Assembly: GCA_037142015.1 (NCBI GenBank)
Contig: JBAXBK010000023.1
Coordinates: 1-32,000 of the forward strand
Direction: 5' to 3'
Origin: Nitrospira sp.
GTDB lineage: Bacteria > Nitrospirota > Nitrospiria > Nitrospirales > Nitrospiraceae
Length of the DNA stretch: 32,000 bases
A program made the position numbers and the translations under genes. Positions 3,291 through 27,808 of this stretch are shown here, one piece after another. The notes beneath the pieces are model-generated. The model worked only from the letters and a program-made list of their open reading frames with translations. It was not told where the DNA came from and did no database searches. Position 1 is the first letter of the stretch. Each line of letters opens with the position of its first letter.

Positions 3291-3335
3291 ACGGGCGACC
3301 TCCTACCATGGTAAGGGGTCGCCCGTGTTATTTGG
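3291..3335 (+). terminator. Rho-independent terminator candidate after amoC
   Basis: A 10-bp stem pairs ACGGGCGACC (3291-3300) with GGTCGCCCGT (3317-3326), followed by GTTATTT. Confidence 0.5.
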
Positions 3336-3520: not shown

Positions 3521-3542
3521 TGGTGCCGAAGGCGGGATTTGA
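3521..3542. repeat. tRNA-distal att core (duplicate of the tRNA-Leu 3' end)
   Basis: 22/22 identity with 27722-27743. Identity stops on both sides of the repeat. Confidence 0.8.
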
Positions 3543-3671
3543 TTTGAGGCGATTTTCATGACTTCAATAATATCAGTCAGTTTAGATATTTTGAAATGTT
3601 TTTACAACGACTTAGACCGTTTCCAGATATGTGATTGAGTATGACCGAGAATGATGGGATTTGCTCTGCTA

Positions 3672-3691
3672 TACGACCGTTTTACGACCGT
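3672..3691 (+). repeat. Tandem 9-bp repeat TACGACCGT x2 (11-bp period), candidate arm-type integrase site
   Basis: Copies at 3672-3680 and 3683-3691, 130 bp inside the distal att core. The same motif pair occurs at 27650-27669. Confidence 0.55.
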
Positions 3692-4096
3692 GACCATCTA
3701 TGGAGGCAGGAGTTCAGCAAAAGGAGTAGGACTGGAACTTCCAACGGAGCAGTTCAGGTCATAGTTCTAGATGCTCGTCAATATCTCCGCCCGCCTGAAC
3801 GTCTATTAAGCCCTGAGAGGGTTTTATGGACAGAGGTGACAGCCAATGGTCACTCTCGCCATCCCACACACGCCTGAGAGCCTTGACACCTTCCTACGGT
3901 CGGCCTAGCTATCCTTGTCACCTGACTAGCCCTTCGACCCTGAGCTGGTCGCCTTTCTAGCCAGAGTCCCCGCGTGCTGTACCTCCACCGGCCTGCAGTG
4001 ACCTTGACAAATGATTCCATTCTGGCCTTTCCGCCTTGGAAGTTATGATGATTTCTCACAGGGAAAGGATTATCCTTTGGAAGCAGTAGTCTTTAG

Positions 4097-4322
4097 CCCG
4101 CACTATTCATGAAAGTTCGTCGCGAAATGGCGGAGTGGCGCGCGACAAGCAAGACGTGCGCGACAGTCGCGACTCGAAGTTCCGGGTTCGAAGTTCCAAA
4201 ACCACGAACTTCGCAGCTCGAACCGTCGTCCGTCTCACCTGTCGCGCTTTCGCGCCAGTCTCGTCCGTCTCGCTTGAGTCAGGCATCCGCGCTTGCAGCA
4301 GGACCTTCATGAATAATGCGGG
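4097..4322. mobile_element. MITE (226 bp) with IS1380-type termini
   Basis: The termini are CCCGCACTATTCATGAA (4097-) and TTCATGAATAATGCGGG (-4322), matching at 16/17 as an inverted repeat. They match the ends of the IS at 13197-14896. The element is flanked by a perfect 4-bp duplication, TTAG (4093-4096 and 4323-4326). Confidence 0.7.
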
Positions 4323-6230: not shown

Positions 6231-6425
6231 GTAAGGTCCGCCAGTTGCCACTCGCCGCAGTCTCTTCGCAATCATCCGTAGCGATCCTCTCCCCCCTTTC
6301 CCAGTTTGACAGGTGTTAGATAGGTGTTAGCGGGGTGAGCAAATCAGGCTAAATGGAGGCAGAGAGCGACAAAGAGAAACAAAGAGGCGAGAGGCTGAAC
6401 ACCGCATGATGCCGCAAGCTGCTAG

Positions 6426-6615
6426 CCCGCACTATTTACGAGACTTCGTGACGAAACCGCCGAGACGCCACGCGAGACAGGCGCGCGGAGCTGAGAGGGA
6501 GGAAGGCATACTTAACACAGTATGTTGACCGACCGAGCGGCGAGCCCGCCTGCCGTTAGGCTTGTCGCAGCGGCGTATCGGCGGCTGTAGTAGAAGTCTT
6601 CGTGAATGGTGCGGG
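6426..6615. mobile_element. Second MITE copy (190 bp) of the same IS1380-type family
   Basis: The left end CCCGCACTATTTACGAGACTTCGTGACGAAA (6426-) parallels MITE 1. The right end, reverse-complemented, reads CCCGCACCATTCACGAAGACTTC (-6615). The flanks are CTAG and CTGG. Confidence 0.6.
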
Positions 6616-12989: not shown

Positions 12990-13196
12990 ATGATCTGGAC
13001 GACCAAGAAGCCGACGAAGACAGGGTGGTATTGGTATCGCGGTGGGGGCGATGGGCAGACCGAGAAAGTTTTACATTTCATTGATGACGACGGAGATGGG
13101 CTCTACCTCGCAACGTCAGATAATTTGGCACTTACTGACTTAGCCGGCGAATGGGCCGGACCGGTTGAGCCGCCTTTGTCAGGTCAGAGTCGTTAG
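12990..13196 (+). CDS. Hypothetical small protein (68 aa), phage-like
   Basis: GGAGG RBS. The N-terminus reads TKKPTKTGWYWYRGG. No assignable function. Confidence 0.45.
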   Translation: MIWTTKKPTKTGWYWYRGGGDGQTEKVLHFIDDDGDGLYLATSDNLALTDLAGEWAGPVEPPLSGQSR

Positions 13197-14896
13197 CCCG
13201 CATTATTCATGACTGATGGTCAGCGGGGCAGCGGCCGCCATGCTGGAGAAGCCGACGACTCTTTTGCCCCTGTCGCGGTCGCTGATGGCAGCGATAGGGC
13301 ACTACGTTCTCTGTTCGGAGTGAACTGGTGGTCGTCGCACGTCCTGCGCGGGAGATTCAGGACACACGTCTCCTGTCGGATCTCTCTCCGCCACCTTCCT
13401 GCAGACGTACTGACGTGTGGTTCACCTGGTACCGCGCCAACGGCCACGGCCACTCGGTGCCAGGTCGTGCCCCAAGGCGCCGAACTGGGCAGGTGCAGCA
13501 CGATGCGGCGCACCGAGCGTTCCACCCAGACCGCCAGCTTGAGCAACCGCTCCCGTAGTGTGGAGACTTGTGCCGTGGCACAGTCCGTCCCGTGGGCCTG
13601 TTGCCGCAACGCCTGTCGCACCACATACGCCGCGGCTGTCAGCAGCACGCGGAATTGGTTCGCCCAGAACCGCGAACAACTGGTGCGGTCCAGCGCTAGC
13701 CCGTGATGCAACTCCTTCAGCCGGTTCTCCATGTCGCCACGCTGACAGTAGATGGTAGAGACCGCGGCGGGCGCGTCACGGAAATTCGTCACCACGAAGC
13801 GCGGATTGCATTTGGGTTCATGTCCGGGCCGACGGACGACCTCCGCCTTGATGATGACGCGTCGACGATGCGACCAGCTTTGGGCCGCATAGAGGGTCTC
13901 TCCGTAGACGTGCTCCGTGCGGCCACTGTACTTCGACAGGCCGTAGGCCTCGCCCAGCAGGCGCCCGGCGCGCCGCTCCAGCCGAGGGTTGCACGCGAGC
14001 CCCACCACATACTCGACTCGCTCCGCTTCCAGGAAGTCCAGCCAGTCGTTCCCGGCAAAGCCCCCGTCCACGCGCACCCGCACCGGGGTGCCGGGAAACG
14101 TCCGCCGCAACTGACGGAGCAGGGTCCGCAGCAGCCCGAACGCGCCGTGCTTCGCCGGACTGTTGCCCGGTCGCAGGACGATCGCCACCAGATACTGGTC
14201 CGTTTCGTCGTTGAACGTCAGCGTCGCGACCTGCGGCAGATAGCACCACGTGTCATAGTGCCCATTGAAGAACGCCAGCTCTTGCTGCCCATGCGTCGGG
14301 TCGTCCGTGGGATCCAAATCGATCGTGATCCGCTGGGCGCGGCCTTTGAGCCGGTGGCGATGCTGCGCGATCACCGTCGACGCCAACATCCGCCCCATCC
14401 GGTACAGGGCTCGTGGGCTGGCGGCATTCTCAAACCGGGAGAGCGTGGGCTGCGAGGCCAAGGCGTCCCCGGTCACCGGGTCGCGCCCCACGGCCAGCTT
14501 GTGCAGGGGATCGTCGGCCAGCCGAGCCGCGTCGTTGGCGTCCTCATATCCACACGCCAGGCCGAAGATGCGCTGGCGCAGCAGGTCGCGGACTGCGTGC
14601 CGGACTTTGTCGGGATCTCGGCGATCGGGCAGGCACGCCGCCAGTTTGTCTGTCAGCTGGAGGCGGTCATCCAGCGCCTTGAGCAACACCAGGCCGCCAT
14701 CCGTGCTAGCATGCGCCTGATCGAATCGGGCGACCGTCTTCGTCTTGGGATAGCATGTGAAGGTCAGTTGCGGTATACACGCTGTGGCCATTGGGTCTCC
14801 TGTGTGCTGTGCGTAGAAACGTCTGAACACCGCTCCTATAGCACAGTTTGGAGACTCGATGGCCTTTTTTCTTGCCAGAGTCATGAATTATTCAGG
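13197..14896 (-). mobile_element. IS1380-family insertion sequence (1700 bp)
   Basis: Imperfect terminal inverted repeats begin with CC: CCCGCATTATTCATGAC (13197-) and GTCATGAATTATTCAGG (-14896). The flanks are TTAG and CTAG. It contains a single DDE transposase ORF. Confidence 0.8.
13220..14791 (-). CDS. IS1380-family DDE transposase
   Basis: Family-typical blocks are present: STDGGLVLLKALDDRL, GYEDANDAARLADDP, ASQPTLSRFEN, ITIDLDPTDDPTHG, RVDGGFA, YCQRGDMENRLKEL, FWANQ. The start is taken at MATACIP. Confidence 0.8.
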   Translation of the reverse strand: MATACIPQLTFTCYPKTKTVARFDQAHASTDGGLVLLKALDDRLQLTDKLAACLPDRRDPDKVRHAVRDLLRQRIFGLACGYEDANDAARLADDPLHKLAVGRDPVTGDALASQPTLSRFENAASPRALYRMGRMLASTVIAQHRHRLKGRAQRITIDLDPTDDPTHGQQELAFFNGHYDTWCYLPQVATLTFNDETDQYLVAIVLRPGNSPAKHGAFGLLRTLLRQLRRTFPGTPVRVRVDGGFAGNDWLDFLEAERVEYVVGLACNPRLERRAGRLLGEAYGLSKYSGRTEHVYGETLYAAQSWSHRRRVIIKAEVVRRPGHEPKCNPRFVVTNFRDAPAAVSTIYCQRGDMENRLKELHHGLALDRTSCSRFWANQFRVLLTAAAYVVRQALRQQAHGTDCATAQVSTLRERLLKLAVWVERSVRRIVLHLPSSAPWGTTWHRVAVAVGAVPGEPHVSTSAGRWRREIRQETCVLNLPRRTCDDHQFTPNRERSALSLPSATATGAKESSASPAWRPLPR

Positions 14897-15149
14897 CTAG
14901 TGCAACCCCTTGGATTTCAAAGCGGAGGAGAGCAATCAACGACGGTTGGATTGCCTGCCCTCCACCAAAAATTGCTCACTCACAAACCGCCGCAGTAATT
15001 CAGCATAATCGCCCGACACTTCAACCGCCAGGTAGAGTTCCGGGCCGTCCGTAATAGCGTGAAGCACAATCTCTTTCCTAAACAGTTCCCGCAGCAGACC
15101 GCGTCAGAGTTGGTTTATTGAAAAAACGTCACACGCCAAACCTACAAGC

Positions 15150-15371
15150 CTCGACCAGTACACACGCACCCTTGGAGACATGATTCTGCCCGATGGGATG
15201 AACCTCAACCAGGAGTTGGCCAAGCAAGGCTGGTGCTGGTGGGACCGGAAGTATGCACCAGGGGATACGGTGTTGGAAGGGCTAGAGAAGGAAGCACGCG
15301 AAGCAAAGAAAGGTTTGTGGATTGATCCACAGCCGGTGCCGCCGTGGGAGTGGCGGAAACAGCGCAAGTAG
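15150..15371 (+). pseudogene. C-terminal fragment of a thermonuclease (staphylococcal-nuclease-like)
   Basis: DQYTRTLGDMILPDGMNLNQELAKQGWCWW...EAREAKKGLWIDPQPVPPWEWR matches the SNase C-terminal half. The N-terminal catalytic half and signal peptide are missing. Confidence 0.65.
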
Positions 15372-15482
15372 TTTTTCTCGAAAACCTATTCCCCTTCCTT
15401 CACACCTCCTCCACGGGCGGCCTAGCCTTGCGACACAACGCCTACAGCTCCTTGATGATCGTTAATGAGGAGGAAAACCCAG

Positions 15483-15725
15483 ATGAGAACTCTAGTGATC
15501 GTGGGGCTATGCACGGCGATGAGTGGTTGCTATGCAATAGATCAACAGACTGCCTATGCAGATCGCCTCAAATCTGAGGCTGAGATAGCCAAGGAACGGG
15601 CCGCAATTATGAAATTATATCGAGGGTGTTTGGAGAAGTACCAGGATGACCCAGTGAAGGCGAAACAAAATTGCGAACACTACACGCAGGCGTTGTACTC
15701 GGTGGATGTGCGTGGGATGAAATAA
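15483..15725 (+). CDS. Small lipoprotein (80 aa)
   Basis: GAGGAGG RBS. Signal peptide plus lipobox: MRTLVIVGLCTAMSGC. Confidence 0.6.
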   Translation: MRTLVIVGLCTAMSGCYAIDQQTAYADRLKSEAEIAKERAAIMKLYRGCLEKYQDDPVKAKQNCEHYTQALYSVDVRGMK

Positions 15726-16109
15726 TTAATGATCCCAGGCCGCAACAGTTAAGCCGCCTTGCGGTTTCCTCAGTCCCCTCCTACAATACGCCTCCTTGCG
15801 AGGCCCCTATGCCCTTCTCGATTCGCCCTTACCGTCGCTTCCCCGTGCATTTTTCCTTATAACACAACATTAATTAGAATTTAATCCACACGTAATTTTG
15901 CGTGGACCAGTTGTCGTATAGTGCCCACGAATTGGAGTTGTGCGAGGATTCCGAAAGAACTGGTTGTGAATCTGTGAACGTTCTCAAGTTGGGCCAAGGT
16001 CTGATCGCAACACTGTCCCTTGATCTTCAAGGAGAACAGTTCTCATGTGCTTCTGAAAACGACTGACGGTAGCTTCTCGGATCATCTCATACTAAATTTC
16101 GGAGGGAAA

Positions 16110-16769
16110 ATGAGAATCCTAATGGTGTTGGCGGCAATCATGGGGCTCTTATGGACCGGCGGACCAGCCTCCGCTGAGCTTGTGGACTTTCAACTCATGG
16201 GGCTGGCACAAGGAAGCAATGGCTATTTGGGTAGTCCGTCCCCTGCACTCTACAGCGCAGATTTCACGGTGGATTTAAACTCTCCCTTACCAGCAGCAAT
16301 CCAGTCTTTCAGTTTCACTTTTGATAATGTGACCTACTCCTCAGTGAATCAACCATCAGGAACTGGGGTGTCGCTTGGAACGGGTGCTCCTACCTGTTGT
16401 GGCCCTCCGATCGGTAACTCGGTCTTTTTTTCTGCCTACGGTCAGGCTATTAACGACCCCACACGACAACTGTATTTGAATGCTGGGTTCTTCAATGGGA
16501 GTGGATTCGATTTTCTTAGTGGTAGTCATGATCTGCATGATGTAGTCAACTCGTTTACTACTACCACGCCCAACCCCTATACCTTAAGTCCTTTCTATGG
16601 CGGTGGCGCCAGTCTATCCGTAAATGGAACATCCGCTGGACAGATTGATTTTCAGTCCGGCAGCTTAAGCGTCGCTCCGGTTCCGGTGCCAGCCGCAGCC
16701 GTGCTGTTCGGGTCTGGCTTGATCGGGCTGTTGGGCTGGCAGCGGAAGCGCCTGCGCAAGATGGTCTAG
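16110..16769 (+). CDS. PEP-CTERM-type sorting-signal protein
   Basis: GGAGGG RBS and an N-terminal signal peptide. The C-terminus reads VPVPAAAVLFGSGLIGLLGWQRKRLRK, which is a P-x-P motif, a TM helix and a basic tail. Confidence 0.75.
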   Translation: MRILMVLAAIMGLLWTGGPASAELVDFQLMGLAQGSNGYLGSPSPALYSADFTVDLNSPLPAAIQSFSFTFDNVTYSSVNQPSGTGVSLGTGAPTCCGPPIGNSVFFSAYGQAINDPTRQLYLNAGFFNGSGFDFLSGSHDLHDVVNSFTTTTPNPYTLSPFYGGGASLSVNGTSAGQIDFQSGSLSVAPVPVPAAAVLFGSGLIGLLGWQRKRLRKMV

Positions 16770-16876
16770 CGGCTTCTCCGTCAGTCCTCTGTGAACCAAG
16801 CGCCTCAAGCCTGCGTGTGTGGGGTTCATCGTGTTGGGTCCTCGCCATAATAGTTTTTGTTGCATAGTTTGTAAAA

Positions 16877-16996
16877 CATCTGCTTAAAGAACGCGTCTCT
16901 TCATGTTTCTGAGTAGTGTCATTCCAACCACTTAGCGGGATCACATCTGACAGGGTTTCGAGACACGGCTTCCCGGCTTTGGGAAACGCAGGGGAT
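16877..16996 (+). repeat. Left copy of a perfect 120-bp inverted repeat
   Basis: Manual reverse-complementing shows 120/120 identity with 18331-18450. Identity ends abruptly on both sides. Confidence 0.95.
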
Positions 16997-17211
16997 TTTA
17001 AGCTCGATACCGACCCAGAGACTATCGAGCGCGATCCGGCGTTATTGGAAAAATATCGGGCGCTTTTGGAGTCGGAGGACTGATACCGATGCTCGATAGT
17101 CCCCCTCCCAGGTTCATAGTTCTTTCACAAACCCGTTTCACCTTCGGCGCTTGAATCATAGGGTTCTGAACGAAGAAAACGGCGTGCGATTGGTGAAAGC
17201 TGGTAGAAAAT

Positions 17212-18213
17212 TTATTCCCCTGACGGATGCTCAGAATGCTTTCTTCGGGCCCTTATACTTTCAATGACTTCATCCTTGTCGAGTCTTGGTTGTTGGCGAG
17301 TAAAAGAATGCTTCTTGACGAGGCTCTCAGTTCCATTTCTCAGCTCATGCGCGAAGACATAGCGTTCCGAGTTAATTGCCATTCGGCGGTTCATATTTTT
17401 CACAGACTCGGAGGTAATGGGTAACGCCTTGTACCTGTTATGGCGAGAGAGCCATAGGCAAACCGTGGGGGAAATAGGGAAAGTTACTTCGGCTGTAGGG
17501 TGTCCGAATCCTCCTCCAAAGCCGGCTCCATCTCCTTTCTTGAATCGAACCACCACCGGGGAGTCCGAAGTGATGAAATGCATTCCGGCTGGAGCCGTGG
17601 ACAGACACCAAAACATCTTTTTGAGTTCGGTAAAGATGGCATCTGAATGCACCATGGGAGAAAAGGTGACGTATTTTTGATCGAACTTCACAATGAAGTG
17701 CTCATCGAAATTCAAAAGTTGCTCCCGAATTTGCTCTTTTGTGAGGAGTTTGGATGAAGGGCTCCCTTCAGCAACAAGGGTTTCCCAAAACTTATCAAAC
17801 TGGGCACTGTCTCGGGCTAATGCCTTGGCGCGTTCGACGGTCATGACTTCTGTCATCGCCTCAAACCATTTCGCGGTTTTTGGGTTCCGAAGGTGTAGTA
17901 GCGCGAGAAAATATGCGACTTCGTGTATTTCTTCGATACGTGGGACAACACGGTGCTCTCGCCATCGCGAGAGGATAGGTGCCACCCCGCTTTCTTGCTT
18001 ACCAAATGCTTCTTCTAAGGCATGGGGAGGCACTCCTGAATGGGAGACTTTATACAGGTTGTTGATCGCGGCAGTGTTCTTTGGTGATTGCTTGCGCGGG
18101 GCTTTACCATCTTTGTCATACACCCACAGCATGGGATTGCGGTCACCAGGATGCACGACAGCGAAGGCGTTTAAATAGGATTCGGGGACATAATGGTTCT
18201 TTCGGTATTGCAT
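17212..18213 (-). CDS. DUF4238-family protein (333 aa)
   Basis: The N-terminus MQYRKNHYVPESYLNAF matches the HYvPxfyLxxF start I associate with DUF4238. The 399-aa track ORF needs a GTG inside the repeat with no RBS, so the ATG at 18213 is preferred. Confidence 0.65.
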   Translation of the reverse strand: MQYRKNHYVPESYLNAFAVVHPGDRNPMLWVYDKDGKAPRKQSPKNTAAINNLYKVSHSGVPPHALEEAFGKQESGVAPILSRWREHRVVPRIEEIHEVAYFLALLHLRNPKTAKWFEAMTEVMTVERAKALARDSAQFDKFWETLVAEGSPSSKLLTKEQIREQLLNFDEHFIVKFDQKYVTFSPMVHSDAIFTELKKMFWCLSTAPAGMHFITSDSPVVVRFKKGDGAGFGGGFGHPTAEVTFPISPTVCLWLSRHNRYKALPITSESVKNMNRRMAINSERYVFAHELRNGTESLVKKHSFTRQQPRLDKDEVIESIRARRKHSEHPSGE

Positions 18214-18330
18214 AGATGGTTGTGCCTCGGCCTCATTAACTGGCTGCCGCTCTAATCGCACACTTAGGCAGTCTCTCGCAATGGAGAGGGAATCCTTTGT
18301 AAGGCTGACGGGGTACTGAAGGGATTTCCC

Positions 18331-18450
18331 ATCCCCTGCGTTTCCCAAAGCCGGGAAGCCGTGTCTCGAAACCCTGTCAGATGTGATCCCGCTAAGTGGT
18401 TGGAATGACACTACTCAGAAACATGAAGAGACGCGTTCTTTAAGCAGATG
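18331..18450 (-). repeat. Right copy of the perfect 120-bp inverted repeat
   Basis: Reverse complement of 16877-16996, 120/120 identical. Confidence 0.95.
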
Positions 18451-18607
18451 ATTGGTGTACAGCCCGGTGACTAAGCATGACAAACGGCCATTTCTCATAA
18501 CGCTCGCATTGCAATGGTTCCCCCCCATTTATCTTGTGATTTCATGATGATGGAGCCTTCTTTGATTTCCATGTTAGTTCTTTCTTTCCTTTCCCTTCCG
18601 ATCATGT

Positions 18608-18627
18608 TTGGTCACAAATTGGTCACA
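18608..18627 (+). promoter_or_regulatory. Tandem TTGGTCACA x2 (11-bp period), candidate regulator-binding site
   Basis: Copies at 18608-18616 and 18619-18627. A possible promoter lies downstream: TTGACG (18663-18668), 16 nt spacer, TATTCT (18685-18690). Confidence 0.3.
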
Positions 18628-18811
18628 CCATTTTCAGCGTACTCCTGCCCCACCTCGTGAGCTTGACGGTAGGAGAATCCCTGATATTCTTGGAAAGACC
18701 TTCAGGACGAATGGTTGTTCTTCAGCGCAGTACACCAACCTCCCAATGGAAAGCGTCGTCCGAGCCTTTTCCCCAACTCAGCCAAGTTTATTCCAATCAA
18801 GGAGAAACACC

Positions 18812-19612
18812 ATGTGGCTCACAAAAACATCAATGCTGGTTGTTGCCGGTATGGGGCTGGCGGCATGGCTCTCTATTGGTAGTGTTGGTATCGGACAAGC
18901 AGGTCAGAGCCAAATAGTGATTGCGTATCCGCCTGTGTCGAACCTTTACATGCAGCAGCGCCAGCTCTGGATGCAGAATCGGATGCTTGAGAATTTGTCC
19001 GAGGCACTGGTTCCGATTAAATGGCCGAGGCAGTTAACATTGATGGCGGTCGAATGTGGTCAGGTGAATGCGTTTTATAATCCACAACAACATTCGATTA
19101 CTATCTGTTATGAGTTTGCGGACCATCTGATTCAAATGTTTAGCCAACAAACACAATTACCACAGAATCAACAAGGCCTACTATTTAGTGGAGCGTTAAT
19201 GTTTACGTTACTTCATGAAGCAGGGCATGCAGTTATTGGTGAATTTAATATACCGGCTCTTGGGCGAGAGGAGGATGCGGCAGATCAGTTTGCAGCCATA
19301 GTTTTTGTGGCTGATCCTAATGGTACGCAATTATTAATGGGCCCATTGTGGTGGCTTCAATTGCATGCGCAGCAAGGTTTCTTTTTAGGGTTTGATATGC
19401 GTGATGCAAAAAGTTTGTATGCGGATGAGCACGGGGTTGATGAACAACGATTTTACAATGTTTCGTGTTTGTTATATGGCAGTAATCCTTCTGCCCATCA
19501 AGACGTTATCGCGAATGGGATGTTGACACCTGAACGAGCGCGAAGATGTCCCTATGAATATCAGAAGATTCGTCGGAGTTGGGAACTTTTGCTTACGCAA
19601 AAGGGAGCGTGA
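18812..19612 (+). CDS. DUF4344-type putative secreted zinc metallopeptidase
   Basis: AAGGAG RBS and a signal/TM segment (MLVVAGMGLAAWLSIGSV). HExxH is followed by the family-typical block: LLHEAGHAVIGEFNIPALGREEDAADQFAAIVFV. Confidence 0.7.
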   Translation: MWLTKTSMLVVAGMGLAAWLSIGSVGIGQAGQSQIVIAYPPVSNLYMQQRQLWMQNRMLENLSEALVPIKWPRQLTLMAVECGQVNAFYNPQQHSITICYEFADHLIQMFSQQTQLPQNQQGLLFSGALMFTLLHEAGHAVIGEFNIPALGREEDAADQFAAIVFVADPNGTQLLMGPLWWLQLHAQQGFFLGFDMRDAKSLYADEHGVDEQRFYNVSCLLYGSNPSAHQDVIANGMLTPERARRCPYEYQKIRRSWELLLTQKGA

Positions 19613-19613
19613 G

Positions 19614-20111
19614 ATGAAAAGGCTTTTTATTGCTTGTCTATCGATCTGGGCTCTTATCGCCTTACCAGGCTTGGCAGTAGCAGGATCAGACGAAGCCGCA
19701 ATTGCCCGAACAATAATGGAGTCAGGTCGTGCGCTTACGAACCTTCTCCAGACGAAGAACCCTCAGGAAGTGCTCCGCTTCTACACAGAGGACTATTCTT
19801 CGATTTTAGACGGAGTTGTTAACAATCGGAAATTGATGGAAATGTCATTAGGGGTGATTAGCGAAGATGCGAAAGGTGGGTTGTTGGAAACCACAACAAC
19901 AAAGATAAGCAATATTCGAGCTATGGCTTTCACTGGAATGGGGTGGGCTACTTACGATGAGTTCATCGACATCCACTCCCCGGAGGTCGTTTTAGTCAAA
20001 GGAGATCTGAAGTGTACAGGTCTGTTACGAAAAATTGGTTCCGAATGGAAGATTCAGCATGAGCATTGTTCAAGTAGAAGAGATCAATCAGGTAACGCTA
20101 GAACAGAGTAG
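19614..20111 (+). CDS. Secreted NTF2-like (SnoaL/DUF4440-like) protein
   Basis: The start lies 1 nt after the upstream stop, suggesting translational coupling. A signal peptide is present. The C-terminus CTGLLRKIGSEWKIQHEHCS is typical of DUF4440-like folds. Confidence 0.55.
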   Translation: MKRLFIACLSIWALIALPGLAVAGSDEAAIARTIMESGRALTNLLQTKNPQEVLRFYTEDYSSILDGVVNNRKLMEMSLGVISEDAKGGLLETTTTKISNIRAMAFTGMGWATYDEFIDIHSPEVVLVKGDLKCTGLLRKIGSEWKIQHEHCSSRRDQSGNARTE

Positions 20112-20167
20112 AAATCGATGACCCTTCATGTATAGGTCATCCTCCGCCGAGAAAGGACCAATTCATC

Positions 20168-20587
20168 ATGAAGTTTGGAGACCAAGAATCGAAACTGGCC
20201 GATTATTGTTGCAAAGATGAACTTGGGCGAAAGATCTCATGTATTCTGACGGACCGTCGCTTAGTGATTAGCGACAAGAATAGCGAAGAAAACTACCCTC
20301 TCGGTAAAATCACGGTGGTGAGCACTGTATATGGACGGTACTGGTGGGTAATAGTAATAGCAGTGCTTACAGCCTTCACCTGTCTAGCGGATATTGCTTT
20401 CAGGGGAGAGGCAAGCAGCAGTTCGTTTGTCGGTTTTACTTTAGCTGGCATCATGTCCTACTTGTGGTTCATAGGCTATACAAAGTTTAGTATAGGTCAG
20501 ATGGGTGGAAACAAGCGGTATTCAATCTTTGGGAAAGACGAAAAGCTGATGGCGTTCGTGGACGCTGTGAACGAAAAGCTGTCCTAA
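20168..20587 (+). CDS. Hypothetical membrane protein with a PH-like N-terminal segment and two TM helices
   Basis: 139 aa containing LTDRRLVISDKNSEENYPLGKITVV followed by two hydrophobic helices. No firm family assignment. Confidence 0.5.
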   Translation: MKFGDQESKLADYCCKDELGRKISCILTDRRLVISDKNSEENYPLGKITVVSTVYGRYWWVIVIAVLTAFTCLADIAFRGEASSSSFVGFTLAGIMSYLWFIGYTKFSIGQMGGNKRYSIFGKDEKLMAFVDAVNEKLS

Positions 20588-20834
20588 CAGGATGCTAAAA
20601 AAGTCCACTAACGGCATTCTCGCTTCTTTCCAGTTTCGTCGATGACTCTTCTTGTTTAGGTCCTTCTTCGCCGAGAATGGATGGATCAAGCTAAGTTCGC
20701 TCCTTGGTCAATGTGGAGCACCAATAGCCCCTCCCGTTCAGGGATCATGGCAGGACCATCGTATTGAACTTGATGATCTACACCCAGGAGATAAATCATA
20801 GGAACTTGAACAGGATGCTGATGGACGCTGTTGA

Positions 20835-21434
20835 TCACCGGGCGGCCACGAGCATGCGCTTAATGTTGAGCATGAGCGCCGCGAAGCGCGCCTGTTCCAC
20901 ACGAAGCACGTCCTCGCCCTCTGGCGTCACCACACCTCCGCGAGTAAAGTCACGCGCCCGATATTCCAACCAGGCACTCTGCACCGCGAGCATTCGGTGA
21001 TAGGTGTTAAACAAAATAGACCGATCGAGGCGTAACGGTCCTATCATCTGATCAAGATCCCGCTGAATGTCTCCAAGATCCTGATAGATCCTGACCCACT
21101 CCTCATGCGTGGTGCGCCCTTCGGCATGGGTTCGATCTGTGCGAAACATAAATTCGGCCCAGAAGGTGTGATCCCCCGCATCGCTTTTCAGCCGTGTGAA
21201 CTCCTCCTGAGTATCGAGCAAAAGGAGTTTCATATCTTGGCTATCGGGGCCAGGGCGGCGAGACTCTCGGTCGGTGATGGTGGGGGTGGCAGGCTCAGCC
21301 TCTGACTGTGTAGCTGTCTGCTGTCTCAGCCTGCGGTACGTACAGTGCCGGAGATGCCCACGAACCGCCTGGGGTGTTTTGAAGGGTTTTTCGCAGTAGT
21401 CACACTCATATCGTTTAGGGGTTATCTTGGCCAT
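20835..21434 (-). CDS. Hypothetical protein with an N-terminal classical C2H2/C2HC-like zinc finger
   Basis: YECDYCEKPFKTPQAVRGHLRHC fits C-x2-C-x12-H-x2-H / H-x3-C. The remainder is unrecognised. Confidence 0.55.
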   Translation of the reverse strand: MAKITPKRYECDYCEKPFKTPQAVRGHLRHCTYRRLRQQTATQSEAEPATPTITDRESRRPGPDSQDMKLLLLDTQEEFTRLKSDAGDHTFWAEFMFRTDRTHAEGRTTHEEWVRIYQDLGDIQRDLDQMIGPLRLDRSILFNTYHRMLAVQSAWLEYRARDFTRGGVVTPEGEDVLRVEQARFAALMLNIKRMLVAAR

Positions 21435-21625
21435 AGATCAGGCGTTGCTCCTGTTTGGGGTTATGTGGTTTGTGCCCCATGAGTGGATATCGCAAAGCGA
21501 CTCACCGCTGGGACAACGGGGCACTCATTGCTGCCGTTTTCACAGGGTGTTGTGCATCTCTGCCTGCTGAGATCATGGAAGGGTCTTTTTTCTTCTCTCT
21601 CGTAGGCACTCACGCGCTCCTCACC

Positions 21626-22201
21626 TCAGCGTGTAACCTGTAATGCCTTGTGGACATAACTCGGACTCGCCCCCACCTGTTTCGCAATCGCACGAATACT
21701 CAACCCCTGTGTTTTGAGATTCATGATTCGTTCCGTGTCCATCTGTAACCCTGGACGCCCAATCTTCTTCCCCAACGCTTTGGCACGTCGCAACCCACCT
21801 TTGATCCGTTCCACGATAATGTTGCGTTCCAACTCTGCCACTGCTGCCACAATCGTAAACATAGCCTTCCCTAGCGGGGAGCTGGTATCGATATTTTCCT
21901 GATAGGAGATAAACTCGATCCCGAGATGCCGCAACTCCTCCAAGGCTGTGATTAAATGCTTGGTGGAGCGTGCAAAGCGATCGAAACGCCAGACCAGCAC
22001 CGCGTCGAACTTCCGTTTGCGGGCATCGGCCATGAGTTCATCGAGAGCTGGCCGTCGTTCCTTGGTGCCGCTGATCCCGGTATCGCAATACTCACGATAG
22101 ATCGTGAAGCCCCGCTGCGTGCAGAAGGCCTGGAGATCGGCCAACTGCATCGCGACGGACTGATCGGCGGTCGAGACTCTACAATAGAGGGCGATCATCA
22201 T
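21626..22201 (-). CDS. Small serine recombinase (resolvase/invertase family)
   Basis: 191 aa with the catalytic N-terminus ALYCRVSTADQ, the block VWRFDRFARS, and a C-terminal HTH (GLSIRAIAKQVGASPSYVHKAL). Confidence 0.9.
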   Translation of the reverse strand: MMIALYCRVSTADQSVAMQLADLQAFCTQRGFTIYREYCDTGISGTKERRPALDELMADARKRKFDAVLVWRFDRFARSTKHLITALEELRHLGIEFISYQENIDTSSPLGKAMFTIVAAVAELERNIIVERIKGGLRRAKALGKKIGRPGLQMDTERIMNLKTQGLSIRAIAKQVGASPSYVHKALQVTR

Positions 22202-22680
22202 CGGGCATGTCGGCGAAACATCTTCTTCATCGTGATGTGTTCCTGGTAGAGTTCAATGAAGTTTTGTTGAATATCCTCCTGACGGACCTCAGACAGGTCG
22301 TCTACGAATTGCTGTTTTCCCTGCGGCCACAATTCGCTGATGCATGACTTTTTATCGCCTTCAATCAAGTGATGATGCGCAACCCAAAACTTGTCCCCTG
22401 AGCGCTTGATCTCCACCCAATAGGTAAAGGCTCTTCCATCGGGTACGGCGATACGGAGCCTCGGATCAACAGGAGGAAAAATGGGAAAATGGTCTGGAGT
22501 GATGTCAACAGAACGTCCATAGCTTCTGAAATCTTTCTGTATTCTCTTGAAAACCGGCAGAACTATACGACTGCCTACTTGATCACACTGTTGCTCAAAT
22601 TTTTCACGATCCTCTAGAGGGATCAAGCGTTCCTGCTCTTCGGGCTCCAATAAGTTGAAAATCTGTTGCTTCAAGTTCAT
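22198..22680 (-). CDS. Hypothetical protein (160 aa) translationally coupled to the serine recombinase
   Basis: GAGGAG RBS before MNLKQQ. Its stop overlaps the recombinase ATG by 4 nt. No motif recognised. Confidence 0.55.
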   Translation of the reverse strand: MNLKQQIFNLLEPEEQERLIPLEDREKFEQQCDQVGSRIVLPVFKRIQKDFRSYGRSVDITPDHFPIFPPVDPRLRIAVPDGRAFTYWVEIKRSGDKFWVAHHHLIEGDKKSCISELWPQGKQQFVDDLSEVRQEDIQQNFIELYQEHITMKKMFRRHAR

Positions 22681-22773
22681 GGTGTACTCCTCTTCACGGG
22701 ATTTCTCGCGTTGAAATATGACTGAAGGAGCGGCCACGCTATATGACCGCTCCCTCAGCATGATGAATGTGGA

Positions 22774-22896
22774 CTACTCCTCTTCTCCTTCCTCTTCGCT
22801 ATCGGAATCCAATGCCTTATCGGAGATATCCTTGACCCCTTCGATGGCATTCTCTAATTCCTCTATGCGCTCTTCCAACTCTCGTTTCGTTGCCAT
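22774..22896 (-). CDS. Small acidic coiled-coil peptide (40 aa)
   Basis: MATKRELEERIEELENAIEGVKDISDKALDSDSEEEGEEE, with a purine-rich RBS (AAGGGGGG). Confidence 0.4.
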   Translation of the reverse strand: MATKRELEERIEELENAIEGVKDISDKALDSDSEEEGEEE

Positions 22897-23017
22897 AAAA
22901 CCACCCCCCTTCTCATTGGATTTCCCTTCTTCAGCACAACGCTGAATCCCTCTCGATCTGCACACCCCCATCGACTCGCATATCTCTTCGTACTCACCGC
23001 TATCAGTTGTTGCTCTC

Positions 23018-23353
23018 TCACACTATTTGTTGAATCACATTCGATTCATGAATCCATCGCAGATGATCTTCATGCCACACCAACACCCATCTCCCTCCCC
23101 TGGTACAATCAACGACATGAACGATTGCAGGACCACACAAATCTTCGCCTGATTTCCACATCACTACCGCGCCTTCGATCAGTTCCCCTGGAGAACCATG
23201 GTCTGGATCACTGAGGACTCGTACCTTTCCACTAGCCTTTTCGAGAACTTTCCATGCTTGTTCATCAGAGAAGTACACCGGGTATCCTGGTACCAGGTGT
23301 ACGGCCCTGTCAGGAAACACAATGCAAAGAGGTCTGAGACCTTCAATCAACAA
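23018..23353 (-). CDS. Hypothetical protein (~105-111 aa, non-ATG start uncertain)
   Basis: The ORF continues downstream of the ATPase gene. The only starts after that gene's stop are TTG (23353/23350) or GTG (23320). Confidence 0.35.
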   Translation of the reverse strand: MLIEGLRPLCIVFPDRAVHLVPGYPVYFSDEQAWKVLEKASGKVRVLSDPDHGSPGELIEGAVVMWKSGEDLCGPAIVHVVDCTRGGRWVLVWHEDHLRWIHESNVIQQIV

Positions 23354-24680
23354 TGATGACTTCCTCCTCCAGTTCGAGATTCGATTCGTCCATACCCTCC
23401 CCCCTAGGATGGGAGTTCGGACGAATCGGTTTTCTAAGGTGATATGTGAATGGGGCACCCTTGTGGCCGCTGCCTTCGCGAACCACCTGCATCCCAAGGA
23501 TATCGATTGCGCGAGAAACATCCTGTTTGCTCAAACCTGTGGACTCGACGATCTCGTGAATTGTGCGGGGGGTCTGATCTAACACCGCGAGGACTTGTTC
23601 AGTTTTTTCTTGTACAGAGACCTGCGCCGGTGAACCCATGGCTTCATATCCGTTTTTCCCATAACGGATTACGAGTTCTTTGGGCGTCTGCGAAAAACGG
23701 GAGACGGATTCCAGCACTCGCTCTTGCGGATCGCCTGGACGGCGTTTCATTGAAATGGCGATATCGACCAGACCGAGAAGGGCGGAGGAACCGCGAATTT
23801 CATCTCCACCTTCCCCACCTGATTTCCGCGTATGCACAAGGCAGAGCCACGCGGCTTTGGTCTGGCGGATCGCATTGAGTAGCATTCGACCGGATCTGAG
23901 CACTTCCGAGGCGTCATTTTCATTCTCCAAATGCCACCATGCGGGTAACGTATCGACCACCACTAACCCGATATCGTGCGCAGCTACGTATTCAACGATA
24001 TCGCGAAGTACGTTCACCGAAAACTCCAGGGGGCCTGTCACTACTTTGATTTGACCTTCTAATCCTTCGACACCCTGCTTTTGAAACCGGCGGATCACAT
24101 CGTCGGAATGCTCTTCAACTGCGAGAACCAGCACCTTGACCTGGCGAACCTTACGCCCGAGGCAGGGTAGTCCACGTGCCACATGTACGATTGCTTCATA
24201 CGCAGCGGTGGTTTTGCCAATCTTTGGCGGACCTGCTTTGGCCGTCAACCGCCTCGGAGCTAAGTAACCGTGGACGAGCCAATCAATTTCCTCTTGAGGC
24301 TTCTGTAGCAATTCGCCAAGATCTTCGGGATTGAAGCCTGAATTCGATTCGTCCAGACTCCCACTCTTAGGGTCTGACTTTGGACGAATCGAAAATGATC
24401 TGGCAGGAGTGTAGCGGGCACCACTTGCCGCGATACTTTTCACCTCGTAATCCGGCAACGGGGGATCACACATTTCTGAGTTGTGTGAAAGAAGAGCTGA
24501 TTCAATTGTCTCTTGGTTGCAACCAAAATGCCGCATGGCCGCACCTAGTTTAAAAAGCGAATCGTTTCTCTGCCCTTCGGGGATACACCCAGACTCTTTT
24601 TGCTGCCGTGTGCCCGGTTGCTCCCGGCTCAAATGCGCGAGAGAGTCCGGAAATTTTGCGAACTCGGTTACATTATCCAT
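23343..24680 (-). CDS. PriCT-like domain + RecA-like (AAA_25/RepA-type) ATPase + C-terminal wHTH; replication helicase-like partner of Prim-Pol
   Basis: IPEGQRNDSLFKLGAAMRHFG...CDPPLPDYEVKSIAAS is PriCT-like. Walker A is GPPKIGKT and the Walker B-like block is LVVVDTL. The C-terminus carries an HTH (IHEIVESTGLSKQDVSRAI). The start is taken at MDNVTEF (24680). Confidence 0.75.
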   Translation of the reverse strand: MDNVTEFAKFPDSLAHLSREQPGTRQQKESGCIPEGQRNDSLFKLGAAMRHFGCNQETIESALLSHNSEMCDPPLPDYEVKSIAASGARYTPARSFSIRPKSDPKSGSLDESNSGFNPEDLGELLQKPQEEIDWLVHGYLAPRRLTAKAGPPKIGKTTAAYEAIVHVARGLPCLGRKVRQVKVLVLAVEEHSDDVIRRFQKQGVEGLEGQIKVVTGPLEFSVNVLRDIVEYVAAHDIGLVVVDTLPAWWHLENENDASEVLRSGRMLLNAIRQTKAAWLCLVHTRKSGGEGGDEIRGSSALLGLVDIAISMKRRPGDPQERVLESVSRFSQTPKELVIRYGKNGYEAMGSPAQVSVQEKTEQVLAVLDQTPRTIHEIVESTGLSKQDVSRAIDILGMQVVREGSGHKGAPFTYHLRKPIRPNSHPRGEGMDESNLELEEEVIIVD

Positions 24681-25171
24681 TCGTACTCTCCTGCAACATG
24701 CTTGGATGGTGGGGCTACGACATAGCCTCCCTCGCCTTTCAGATCGAGGCCAGGTTGCATACCGATGCGATTCTTCACCGGGTAGCCAGGGTGGAGAAAG
24801 TACAGATGCCGACCCCGTCGCGTCTTGACCTCGAAGGTCACCGGCAAGTTCAGGCTCTTGACGTTTTCTTCGCCATCCGGGCCATCGATATCCAGAACCA
24901 CAATCCCCGATGCGGCTCCAGTGACGATTCCGACGTTGCTGTTTGGCCATTGTTTCCACCACGAACGAATGGTCGCCCGGTCGCATGAAGCGTAGTCCTG
25001 CCACATATTGAGTCGCGGATGTTTTCCAGGACTTTTGCATTCAGAGTTCCCGCAAGTACAGCGACCATCCTTAGTCATCCCGTGGAGGGGATGGACACGC
25101 CATCCCATGTCGCCATAGACGAGGGCTGCGGCAAGGCACTCAGAGCCTTTTTTAGTTTTCAGTACTGGCAT
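24668..25171 (-). CDS. Bifunctional DNA primase/polymerase (Prim-Pol) N-terminal domain protein
   Basis: GWRVHPL...CTCGNSECKSPGKHPR...NVGIVTG..SGIVVLDIDG...TRRGRHLYF...GLDLKGEGGYVVAPPS matches the Prim-Pol signature. AGAGGA RBS. Confidence 0.85.
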   Translation of the reverse strand: MPVLKTKKGSECLAAALVYGDMGWRVHPLHGMTKDGRCTCGNSECKSPGKHPRLNMWQDYASCDRATIRSWWKQWPNSNVGIVTGAASGIVVLDIDGPDGEENVKSLNLPVTFEVKTRRGRHLYFLHPGYPVKNRIGMQPGLDLKGEGGYVVAPPSKHVAGEYEWIM

Positions 25172-25324
25172 GTGTTCCTCTTTGCTTGATTTCAGTTAAA
25201 GGGCTTCCGGTCTTCATTCGTATGAACGGAAAACGAATGGCTGAAGAATCGTTGTCCTCAAGAACGAGAAATCCGCCTTTAAGCATTCGAGCAACTGCCG
25301 TACCACTTTGTGATTCGCATGACT

Positions 25325-25555
25325 TCAAGCCCTCTCGTGTGCACCCTTCAAGGCTGGCGTGTAGTTCTCGTGAGTCAACTTCTCTAGATCTGACTCGCGA
25401 ATCCTGACGGCTCTTCGCCCAACGCGCACATACGCGAGCCGACGTTCGAAAATCCATTTGCGGACTGTGCAGGGCTGCAACCTCAGGCGGTCCGCGGCCT
25501 CTGGCACCGTCAAGAGCCGCTCTTCAAATTGACCTTTTCGATTCTGAATCGTCAT
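25325..25555 (-). CDS. Excisionase/AlpA-type HTH DNA-binding protein (76 aa)
   Basis: LLTVPEAADRLRLQPCTVRKWIFERRLAYVRVGRRAVRIRESDLEKL is the excisionase-family HTH pattern. It is the first gene of the minus-strand replication operon. Confidence 0.75.
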   Translation of the reverse strand: MTIQNRKGQFEERLLTVPEAADRLRLQPCTVRKWIFERRLAYVRVGRRAVRIRESDLEKLTHENYTPALKGAHERA

Positions 25556-25679
25556 GCTCCCAGGATACAGAAGCGCACATCGGCAGTCTACGCTCATAGG
25601 TAAATCATCTGTAGTGACACTAATAGACACTTGATAATTAGAAATACGTTGTGCTATATGTCCGTCACACTCAATCACA

Positions 25680-26495
25680 ATGGGGAGGCCGATGCGAACG
25701 TCCGCAACTCATTTGAACGCAGGATTTCTAGAACGATGGCGTGGGCCGAGCCTTGCCGAGAGGACCTCACAGTTGAAGTGGGTCTTGGCCTTTGCTCAAC
25801 AGGACATAGGGGGATTAGAAGAATCTGAATGGAAGGATCTTGAGGAAGGGCTTCAGCGCTTTTGTGGTGCGTGTGCCGCCTTCTCCCCTATTCAAGTGTG
25901 GAAGAATTACCCGATCGTCCCCGAGGCAACGTTGTCTAAGAAATGGGAGAAAGGGCGCCTGAAAGTACCGTTGACCAGAGGCGACTTGGAAAAGATGCAC
26001 CGCATGCTCAAGGAGGCGCTTGAGACCTTGTACCCGAAGCAGTTTCCTTCGGCTGAGGAAGATCGTCACCCGAGATGGCTCCTCCCTGTAACGATCAAGA
26101 AGATCGAACTTGTGGGACGTGTGGTCAAGCCTGCAAGGCGGGTCGTAAAGCGATTAGTAGCGGGGACGGTGGTACGTGCACACATCCATCGTCGCTATGA
26201 GGTGGGCTGGCCTGACCTGTTTTGGTTTGCATTCGCAGAGTACATGGAGACCTTTGCCACAGACCTACGCCGGTGTACAGAATGTCTGACCCTTTATGTG
26301 AAACGAAAACGCCAGGAATACTGCTCCAAGACTTGTTCTCAGCGCGTACGAACGCGTCGGTGGAAGGAAAAGGATCCCCTGCATGCAAGTGACAGCCGCC
26401 ATCAAGCCTATGTCAGGTATAAGCGCAAGGAGTTGGGGTCGGACAAAGTGAAACCACAGCGACGTGGGGCAAGGATTCGTAAGATGGGTATATGA
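25680..26495 (+). CDS. Hypothetical protein with a C-terminal CxxC...CxxxC zinc-ribbon (CGNR-like) and a basic tail
   Basis: RRCTECLTLYVKRKRQEYCSKTCSQRVRTRRWKEK. The gene is divergent from the excisionase-type gene and upstream of int. Confidence 0.55.
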   Translation: MGRPMRTSATHLNAGFLERWRGPSLAERTSQLKWVLAFAQQDIGGLEESEWKDLEEGLQRFCGACAAFSPIQVWKNYPIVPEATLSKKWEKGRLKVPLTRGDLEKMHRMLKEALETLYPKQFPSAEEDRHPRWLLPVTIKKIELVGRVVKPARRVVKRLVAGTVVRAHIHRRYEVGWPDLFWFAFAEYMETFATDLRRCTECLTLYVKRKRQEYCSKTCSQRVRTRRWKEKDPLHASDSRHQAYVRYKRKELGSDKVKPQRRGARIRKMGI

Positions 26496-26539
26496 CGACA
26501 TGGCTGATCTAACTAGCCTGAATGGAAGGACACTGGCAC

Positions 26540-27709
26540 ATGGCCATCAAGAAAACAAAAACAGGATATCAAATTCGTTGGTACAAGGCTGATGGCGGGG
26601 AAACGAAGAGAACCTATCGAGGCATCAGCCGAATTGAAGCTGAACACAAGGAACGGGAGATTCTGCACAAGCGTGACTATGGGGAAACCACGCCGAACCC
26701 TCGGCACGCCCCAACGCTGGATCAGGTTACCCAAGAGTGGATCGAGCAACACCGACCGGAGTGGAAGCTTTCCACGTTGGCTCAGTATCAAAACGTCATC
26801 GCCACGCATTTGAAGCCGACCTTCGGCACAGAGCGAGTCAGCCAGATCACCGGGCAGCGCGCCCTAGATCTCAGAACAAAGTTATACGATGCAGGGCTCT
26901 CGGCTCGTCGAATCAACCTCATCCTGCTCGTGCTGAAGATGATCCAGAAGGCTGCTCGGTACCCCTTGGTCGGCGTTAAGATGCTCCGCGAGGAAAAGAC
27001 GGAAGTAGACCCACTCGCCTCGGATGAAGTCGAGGCCATGCTCGCGAAGTGTCCGGCCTGGTGGCGGCCATTCTTTACGGTGTCGTTCTGGTCTGGCGCC
27101 CGGCCTGGCGAGTTGGCAGCGCTCAAGTGGGGAAACGTGGACTGGCGGATCAATAAGTTTCGTATTCTTGCCCGGCGGTATCGGGGCGATGAATCCACCC
27201 CAAAGACTCCGAACAGCACTCGCGAAGTAGATATGCTGCTGCCGGTCATTGACGCGTTAAAGGCTCAACGCGCCCAGCAAGCCGCCATGCGATTGAAGCG
27301 AGGGGAGGGGAAGCCGGAGGCGGGGAAAGATTATGTGTTCACCGGGCCAGAGGGTGGATTCCTGAACCTGAACTTCTTGAGAGAGAAAATCTGGTATCCG
27401 ACGCTGGACAGGGCCAAGCTACGCCGACGGACCTTTTATCAAACGCGCCACACCTTCGCGAGCAACGCGCTGGCTGCTGGCGAGAATCCGAAATGGGTGG
27501 CGGATATGCTCGGCCATAAGTCTACGCAAATCCTGTTCGACGTGTATGAGAAGTTTATTCCGAGGCGGACCCGGATGGATGGAAGCGCGCTCGTGGCTCG
27601 GATGAAGGAGGAGTCTGGACAACACACTGAGCCGATGTCGGTTCTGCAATACGACCCAAATACGACCGTTTCGCAACCTGCCCCATCCACCGGCTCAGTA
27701 TCTCAATAA
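26540..27709 (+). CDS. int: Tyrosine-type site-specific integrase
   Basis: N-terminal arm-binding-like MAIKKTKTGYQIRWY. The catalytic region includes RPGELAALKW, RHTFASNALAAGENPKWVADMLGHKS and FDVYEKF. The gene ends 12 bp from the tRNA 3' end. Confidence 0.9.
   Translation: MAIKKTKTGYQIRWYKADGGETKRTYRGISRIEAEHKEREILHKRDYGETTPNPRHAPTLDQVTQEWIEQHRPEWKLSTLAQYQNVIATHLKPTFGTERVSQITGQRALDLRTKLYDAGLSARRINLILLVLKMIQKAARYPLVGVKMLREEKTEVDPLASDEVEAMLAKCPAWWRPFFTVSFWSGARPGELAALKWGNVDWRINKFRILARRYRGDESTPKTPNSTREVDMLLPVIDALKAQRAQQAAMRLKRGEGKPEAGKDYVFTGPEGGFLNLNFLREKIWYPTLDRAKLRRRTFYQTRHTFASNALAAGENPKWVADMLGHKSTQILFDVYEKFIPRRTRMDGSALVARMKEESGQHTEPMSVLQYDPNTTVSQPAPSTGSVSQ
27650..27669 (+). repeat. Tandem TACGACCCA / TACGACCGT (11-bp period), candidate arm-type integrase site
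   Basis: Copies at 27650-27658 and 27661-27669, 53 bp inside the tRNA-proximal att core. Motif and orientation match 3672-3691. Confidence 0.55.
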
Positions 27710-27721
27710 CTTAGAGCGATT

Positions 27722-27743
27722 TGGTGCCGAAGGCGGGATTTGA
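27722..27743. repeat. tRNA-proximal att core
   Basis: Identical to 3521-3542. It corresponds to the T-loop through CCA of tRNA-Leu. Confidence 0.8.
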
Positions 27744-27808
27744 ACCCGCACACCCTTGCGGGCGCTAGACCCTGAATCTAGTGCGTCTGCCAGTTTCGCC
27801 ACTTCGGC
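27722..27808 (-). tRNA. tRNA-Leu (anticodon CAG), 87 nt, CCA encoded
   Basis: Manual fold: acceptor GCCGAAG/CTTCGGC, anticodon stem CTAGA/TCTAG with loop TTCAGGG, a long variable arm, T arm GCGGG-TTCAAAT-CCCGC, discriminator A and CCA. Confidence 0.9.

Follow-up and report, generated by a model that had tools for sequence, protein, structure and literature searches.

Does a perfect inverted repeat around a single gene turn that gene into a switch, mark it as a mobile cassette, or record a recent accident of duplication? The question is raised by a 32-kb stretch of a Nitrospira sp. metagenome-assembled genome, referred to here as the window, in which one gene of the DUF4238 family lies on an integrated island between two 120-bp sequences that are reverse complements of each other. 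An initial annotation of this DNA had proposed that the bracketed gene is either a gene-scale invertible switch or a novel cassette. With moderate confidence, we favor a single, recent event in which 120 bp of noncoding DNA was duplicated in inverted orientation around a defense cassette; the arrangement would be passive and involve no dedicated switch. The coordinates of the features are collected in Table 1.

The inverted repeat and the gene it encloses

Positions 16877-16996 were the exact reverse complement of 18331-18450 (120/120), with 1334 nt between the arms and 1574 bp in the whole unit, both arms included. A repeat finder returned arms of 123 nt at 99% (16874-16996 and 18331-18453), of which the 120/120 match formed the perfect core. 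No second long inverted repeat was present in the window, the runner-up being 49 nt at 76%, and the best inverted matches in 10 shuffles of the window reached 18-28 identical positions. The left and right copies were exactly equal in extent. Past their edges, identity was at chance (outer flanks 15/60, inner flanks 21/60), so all four edges were as sharp as first described, and gapped alignment of the 300-nt repeat flanks yielded nothing beyond 8-mers. The earlier observation that no direct target duplication surrounds the unit was extended to every configuration read from the sequence: no target-site duplication, direct or inverted, was found at the outer or inner junctions (outer flanks GTAAAA and ATTGGT).

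The same structure was recovered from two further assemblies. Contig L001 (ENA ERZ27300054, k141_520575) corresponded to window positions 27776-14510 with eight mismatches, all within an insertion sequence (IS) at the left edge of the island, and contig L009 (ENA ERZ4222710, NODE_3512) corresponded to positions 14846-27776 at 100%. Both contigs carried both repeat copies at 100% identity, internally rather than at their ends, and the orientation of the DUF4238 segment was the same in all three full-length assemblies. The assemblers were deduced from the contig names only, k141_ suggesting MEGAHIT and NODE_ suggesting SPAdes. If the k141_ name also means that the last k-mer was 141 long, and thus longer than the 120-bp repeat, each repeat would be spanned by single k-mers with no competing branch. 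In run SRR7053306, one Logan contig (L008) stopped at 16906 and another (L010) began at 18421, each reaching exactly 30 nt into the repeat from its unique outer flank. Such breaks are what a k=31 graph is expected to produce where a repeat is real, which argues against the assembly artifact that the initial annotation had considered.

The repeat itself demonstrated few internal features. It contained no internal direct repeats, its sole dyad was 5 bp long (TTCCC-N6-GGGAA), and the 120-bp unit had neither terminal inverted repeats of its own nor hairpins. Its folding was unremarkable (z = 0.61 and -2.12), an Rfam search of it matched no family, and a promoter scan detected no promoter-like site within it. 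Within the window, no further copies were found, no 12-mer was common to the repeat and the remaining sequence, and no motif was common to the repeat and the region of a serine recombinase gene located on the same island. An exact 28-mer of the repeat was absent from 185,579 species-representative genomes, JGI metagenome contigs, and IMG/VR, and a distant blastn search of the noncoding segments found no match in plasmid DNA or in about 340 kb of related loci. The stretch 16770-18798, made up of spacer, left repeat, gene, right repeat, and spacer, was unique to this island in all data searched.

The enclosed protein matched PF14022 (E=2.2e-42, 145.8 bits against a cut-off of 27) over profile positions 1-278 of 281, indicating a full-length domain. 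Together with an alignment of homologues, this match confirmed the single minus-strand gene of the initial annotation and the distance of its start codon from the right repeat. All 12 homologues (58-70% identity) began with M-x-Y-K/R-K-N-H-Y-V-P, aligned with the ATG at 18213. Above this ATG, the frame continues uninterrupted across the right repeat as far as a GTG at 18411. Because the homologues all begin at ATG 18213, downstream of the repeat, the right repeat is noncoding 5' sequence, and a coding repeat that supplies a shared N-terminus was rejected. The 55-codon open reading frame (ORF) that had been reported to start in the left repeat does exist but is probably not a gene, having no match in PADLOC or PHROGs. 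Its twin at the right repeat is the in-frame upstream extension just described, which is common to no DUF4238 homologue, and the 55-codon ORF is an accidental mirror image of that open frame.

The match of the protein to the PADLOC profile DUF4238-Pers was weak (E=2e-7, 28.8 bits, profile positions 5-253 of 309), which points to a remote relationship. Strong T7 resistance was obtained with one DUF4238 protein encoded in a P2 hotspot of E. coli (PMC9122126), and DUF4238 is counted as a defense system in surveys of Pseudomonas islands (PMC12629846). These reports and the PADLOC match support the earlier guess of a defense or abortive-infection type of role; by family membership only, the gene is a putative defense gene, and it appears to be a new, remote, Nitrospira-type member of a known defense family. 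Named members of the subfamily were all from Nitrospira or Nitrospirae. The gene stands alone, with different neighbors in every context examined and no conserved partner gene, and homologues were also found among toxin-antitoxin and defense genes. When a confident AlphaFold2 model of the protein (pLDDT 84) was compared with the PDB by Foldseek, nothing matched (best E=0.26), and no relative was found when the family profile was compared with solved structures.

About 20 other DUF4238 loci were compared. Locus L002 was uninformative, its contig ending 42 bp after the gene. No flanking inverted repeats were present at L003/L011 (a complete Nitrospira genome), L046, or L047/L048 (homologues of L003/L011, L046, and L047 59-70% identical), or at 18 distant DUF4238 loci (7 viral, 11 plasmid), and a search of metagenome contigs for related DUF4238 loci gave no result. 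A perfect long inverted repeat was found at none of the other loci examined. Two lineages had imperfect brackets. At L006/L012 (Nitrospira CG24A), a homologue placed among toxin-antitoxin cassettes (BrnT/A-, HicA/B-, and HigB/A-like) was flanked by inverted copies of a dispersed repeat with arms of 42-115 nt at 79-94%. At the viral locus L027 (IMG/VR UViG_2775506953_000002), a 25%-identical DUF4238 gene lay between inverted arms of about 175-200 nt at 80-97%. The L027 arms (2648-2822 and 3973-4148, comprising 58 nt at 97% plus 115 nt at 80%) resembled the arms of the window in scale, were unrelated to them in sequence, and had a third copy 1.8 kb away at 5829-5916. The repeats at L006/L012 and L027 were thus imperfect, multicopy, and unrelated in sequence to the 120-bp repeat, and they look like dispersed intergenic elements rather than a conserved control device. 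Inverted-repeat brackets accordingly occurred in three unrelated DUF4238 lineages (window, L006/L012, and L027), each built from unrelated sequence. The initial annotation had suggested a search for DUF4238 genes between long inverted repeats; a bracket conserved throughout the family was rejected, since most of the loci lacked flanking repeats.

In Nitrospira CG24A and a related metagenome contig, a dispersed quasi-palindromic repeat family (TGCTCGCGCAACGCGCGGCCTCAGAAGGCCCTCGTTGGACGCGCGCAG...) separates the toxin-antitoxin cassettes and the DUF4238 homologue, the inverted copies beside that gene belonging to this family; it lies at positions 2690-3705 and 5819-6961 of L012 and 487-806, 2660-2765, and 6652-6807 of L006. 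The GTTGGAC within it fits the integron attC core GTTRRRY, although copies occur in both orientations.

Origin of the repeat

In the account that we favor, one recent event would have copied 120 bp in inverted orientation from upstream of the gene to 215 bp past its stop codon, or the reverse, and the copies would be identical because they are young. The perfect repeat, its sharp edges, and the same extent of both copies fit one duplication event better than two independent truncations. The mechanism would probably be a template switch or illegitimate recombination, which is suggested by the lack of a target duplication. The initial annotation had viewed the surrounding island as decayed and the identity of the copies as a possible sign of homogenization by inversion. 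That case is weak, since the shared 12.9 kb of the island was identical in three assemblies, which also leaves the age of the repeat uncalibrated. The minimal length for RecA-type recombination in E. coli is below 120 bp, and the 1334-bp segment may occasionally be inverted by host homologous recombination, the repeat being above that minimum. An inversion would carry the 117-bp leader along with the gene and place an identical repeat before it, leaving the same 237 bp ahead of the ATG, and flipping is not expected to turn the gene on or off. On this account the repeat would be no dedicated recombinase site.

Several points weigh against a single passive duplication. Junction microhomology, which would mark a template switch, was not found at the repeat junctions. 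The search for extra 120-bp copies covered only 32 kb of the host genome, and the three assemblies possibly came from related or even identical samples. A check for both orientations, which had been recommended at the outset, returned a single orientation in the window, L001, and L009; these are consensus assemblies, which show the majority state only, and a minority orientation of the segment would be invisible in them. Brackets in roughly 3 of 20 DUF4238 loci appear to be more than arbitrary genes would show, which hints at a recurrent process. The same island encodes a small serine recombinase whose best solved relative is the Gin invertase (97 bits, versus 76 bits for gamma-delta resolvase), and there are invertases that can work from a distance. 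That the repeat is functional, either through phase-variable inversion of an entire single-gene defense of the abortive-infection type by a Gin-like recombinase or RecA, or through repeated packaging of DUF4238 as mobile cassettes bounded by inverted repeats, nevertheless appears quite improbable.

Of the alternatives to a recent duplication, the one that survives best is a mobile cassette, which we consider unlikely. The two copies would then be the terminal inverted repeats of a nonautonomous transposable unit, or a pair of repeats like miniature inverted-repeat transposable elements (MITEs) flanking the DUF4238 gene. The exactly equal extent of both copies is consistent with such a unit, as is the mosaic cargo region with its sharp module boundaries, and the inverted, multicopy dispersed repeats at L006/L012 and L027 bring the brackets, with that of the window, to three in about 20 loci, which keeps the cassette alive. 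It is opposed by the lack of any target-site duplication and by the structure of the 120-bp unit, which has no terminal inverted repeats or hairpins. Nor was there a further copy in the window or an occurrence of the 28-mer in the three public DNA collections. The ends were unrelated to those of the neighboring IS (21 bp), and the unit encodes no transposase, DUF4238 being its sole gene and the DUF4238 model matching no solved fold. An empty site or alternative arrangement was sought through the neighboring genes, of which the left one encodes a protein with no homologue but itself in the protein search. On the right side, homology of the adjacent DUF4344 block begins at 18799 rather than at the repeat edge and is uninformative on a cassette boundary.

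A programmed switch, as put forward in the initial annotation, is in our view a decidedly poor prospect. A Gin-like recombinase or another invertase would flip the DUF4238 segment through sites in the repeats, so that a phase-variable defense gene would alternate between a state divergent from the DUF4344 operon and a state co-oriented behind the PEP-CTERM gene. A single gene of a costly type bracketed by a perfect inverted repeat would suit this design. The recombinase reported 3.2 kb away was confirmed as a member of the resolvase/invertase family (Table 1); it may be an invertase or a resolvase, its NCBIfam matches all lying under their cut-offs and its viral relatives showing no clear invertible segment alongside. 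Phase variation of defense by inversion is documented for Type I restriction-modification and BREX systems, and programmed inversions normally have the recombinase gene beside or inside the segment (PMC9881135). Here the recombinase gene was 3176 bp from the right repeat, with four genes intervening. The hix/gix-type pattern TTNTCNNAAACCNNGGTTTNNGANAA had 0 matches in the whole window at up to 3 mismatches, and the repeat offered only its single 5-bp dyad. Nine viral relatives of the recombinase (36-53% identity) had no long inverted repeat nearby. Since 237 bp before the ATG would be identical in both states, a promoter swap would depend on a promoter beyond that distance, and the promoter scan detected no remote promoter that could serve. 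No positive evidence was obtained for an ON/OFF inversion or promoter swap driven by the recombinase. The initial annotation had itself named a single orientation and homologous loci without repeats as evidence against a switch, and both were in part observed: the three assemblies showed one orientation, and the bracket was not kept in the homologous loci.

Regulation at the RNA level is very improbable. The initial annotation had suggested that identical promoters in both copies drive convergent sense and antisense transcription. In a duplex version, an mRNA started in or above the right copy would read through the left copy, and the resulting 120-bp duplex between its 5' and 3' regions would be an RNase III substrate that silences a toxic defense gene. 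The geometry permits this, the repeat lying in the 5' region and just past the 3' end of the gene, and the minus strand showed no terminator-like site from the stop codon as far as the left copy. The promoters were not borne out by the promoter scan, which found none inside the repeat; in addition, the feature was kept in no homologue, the repeat had no Rfam match, and the proposal is purely inferential.

An inverted duplication made by the assembler can hardly be credited, for although all sources are metagenome assemblies, in which inverted chimeras occur, the same structure lay inside the contigs of three assemblies whose contig names suggest different assemblers, and the Logan contigs broke exactly 30 nt inside the copies.

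If the recent duplication is correct, the locus would be a Nitrospira case in which a small island integrated at a tRNA carries a DUF4238 defense gene as cargo, and in which a young inverted duplication makes the gene invertible by ordinary recombination; this would be useful for annotation and unsurprising. If both orientations are real, whole-gene inversion of a single-gene defense would be a new route to phase-variable, costly immunity, in nitrifiers of environmental and engineering importance, and the recurrent brackets around DUF4238 in three lineages would merit a systematic survey. Unless both orientations or additional copies can be shown, the repeat will remain a curiosity.

The island and its other genes

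The DUF4238 gene belongs to the cargo of a 12.9-kb island whose right boundary is tRNA-Leu(CAG). Beside the tRNA are a tyrosine integrase, an HTH_17 protein (AlpA-type helix-turn-helix), a Prim-Pol, and a PriCT/AAA_25 primase-helicase; the small serine recombinase lies further inward, followed by the cargo. This gene set appears to resemble those of phage satellites and small integrative elements. At the left edge is the IS in which all differences between L001 and the window fall, and the ends of this IS were unrelated to the 120-bp repeat.

Table 1. Features of the DUF4238 locus and its island (window coordinates)
Feature	Position	Strand	Remarks
IS, DDE_Tnp_1_4 transposase, 21-bp terminal repeats	13194-14899	-	Left edge of the 12.9-kb island
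PEP-CTERM-like left neighbor, 219 aa	16110-16769	+	Weak PEP-CTERM-like C-terminus
Left 120-bp repeat copy	16877-16996		Noncoding; 215 bp past the DUF4238 stop codon
55-codon chimeric ORF	16916-17083	+	GTG start in the left repeat
Unique spacer, 215 bp, left repeat to gene stop codon	16997-17211		Holds the nonrepeat tail of the 55-codon ORF; no similarity found
DUF4238 gene, 333 aa, sole gene in the 1334-bp segment	17212-18213	-	Pfam PF14022
Unique leader, 117 bp, inside the invertible segment	18214-18330	-	No similarity to upstream regions of homologues
Right 120-bp repeat copy	18331-18450		Noncoding; 118 bp upstream of the DUF4238 start codon
Unique spacer, 348 bp, right repeat to DUF4344 module	18451-18798		No similarity elsewhere in the searches
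DUF4344 metallopeptidase, SnoaL-like, and 139-aa module	18799-20642	+	Portable cargo block
Small serine recombinase, 191 aa, resolvase/invertase family	21626-22201	-	Pfam Resolvase E=7.9e-47
Tyrosine integrase	26522-27709	+	Adjoins tRNA-Leu(CAG); island end
tRNA-Leu(CAG)	27722-27808	-	Island end

The cargo region is a mosaic with sharp module boundaries. The DUF4344-SnoaL-139-aa block was found at 78-85% DNA identity in three other mobile elements (L013, L015, and L017), namely an integrase island, a conjugative element with Tra genes, and a defense cluster, and in all three the homology begins at 18799, 13 bp before the ATG. Its neighbors elsewhere were of the defense type and included SLFN/AlbA_2, methyltransferase plus SNF2, nSTAND3, and ThiF/E2 genes. 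On the other side of the unit, the PEP-CTERM match of the left neighbor was below the Pfam threshold (16.6 vs. 20.7 bits), and a word-indexed search of a 5.8-billion-sequence collection at E<=1e-10 returned no homologue of this protein but itself. The best sigma-70-like match in the region (TTTACA-17-TATTAT, 10/12) lay directly outside the left repeat, at window positions 16875-16847 on the minus strand, facing away from the cassette and antisense to the PEP-CTERM gene; the count of sigma-70-like matches in the region was not above chance.

Further repeats were noted in the window. A 22-bp direct repeat of the tRNA-Leu 3' end at 3521-3542 suggests that the island is larger or tandem, with a length of about 24 kb. 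Both L001 and L009 cease to match the window at 27776, inside the tRNA-Leu, and from there L009 (12932-13294) runs on for 363 unrelated bp, which could represent either a different flank or a further, tandem element. Inside the primase-helicase gene, two 50-nt hairpin-forming repeats (23379-23428 and 24342-24391, 963 bp apart) have a common 12-bp stem (TTCGATTCGTCC...GGACGAATCGAA) and unlike loops, with DNA folding z = -2.8 and -5.5; the island could use them as a replication origin or as cis sites of another kind. Two solo sequences at 4094-4135 and 6423-6464 resemble the 21-bp terminal repeat of the DDE_Tnp_1_4 IS (TAGCCCGCA(C/T)TATTCATGA...) and, in direct orientation, flank a Sel1-repeat-like gene that contains 108-nt tandem repeats (5158-5700).

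Comparison with known systems

The serine-invertase switches (Hin/hix, Gin/gix, Cin/cix, and Pin) share with the window a 1-4 kb segment, inverted repeats, and a recombinase of about 190 aa of the same family. Hin/Gin-type sites are 26 bp long with a recognizable consensus, and the recombinase gene abuts the segment or lies inside it, whereas the window repeat is 120 bp long without such a site, the recombinase is 3.2 kb away, and one orientation was seen.

Inversion by homologous recombination is known from the RecA-dependent sap locus of Campylobacter fetus and from inverted tuf genes, where long, similar inverted repeats suffice and no dedicated site is needed; inversion and gene conversion are expected by-products of long inverted repeats. 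There, the repeats consist of conserved coding sequence, and the flip determines which gene is placed behind a unique promoter. The window repeat, in contrast, is noncoding, and the gene retains 237 identical base pairs upstream either way.

Gene-altering programmed inversions and shufflons act through repeats located within coding sequences and swap segments of genes (Milman et al., 2023, PMC9881135). The window resembles them in having long inverted repeats tied to a defense gene on mobile DNA, and differs in that its repeat lies outside conserved coding sequence and brings no alternative gene segment.

Passenger cassettes flanked by MITEs or IS ends ("transporter IS") likewise carry a transposase-free passenger gene between inverted terminal sequences. 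The window unit differs from them in lacking a target duplication, another copy, or a likeness to any IS end in reach, whereas the L027 and L006/L012 loci look like cassettes of this type.

The closest comparison for the gene itself is the DUF4238 antiphage system of the E. coli P2 hotspot (Rousset et al., 2022), which is represented in PADLOC. The window protein is remote from the tested family (28.8 bits) and belongs to a Nitrospira/Nitrospirae subfamily, and phage resistance was shown for the E. coli member only. Like that system, it comprises a full-length Pfam domain encoded by a stand-alone gene, and it is carried as cargo of a small integrative element whose gene set is satellite-like and which bears other defense-type cargo.

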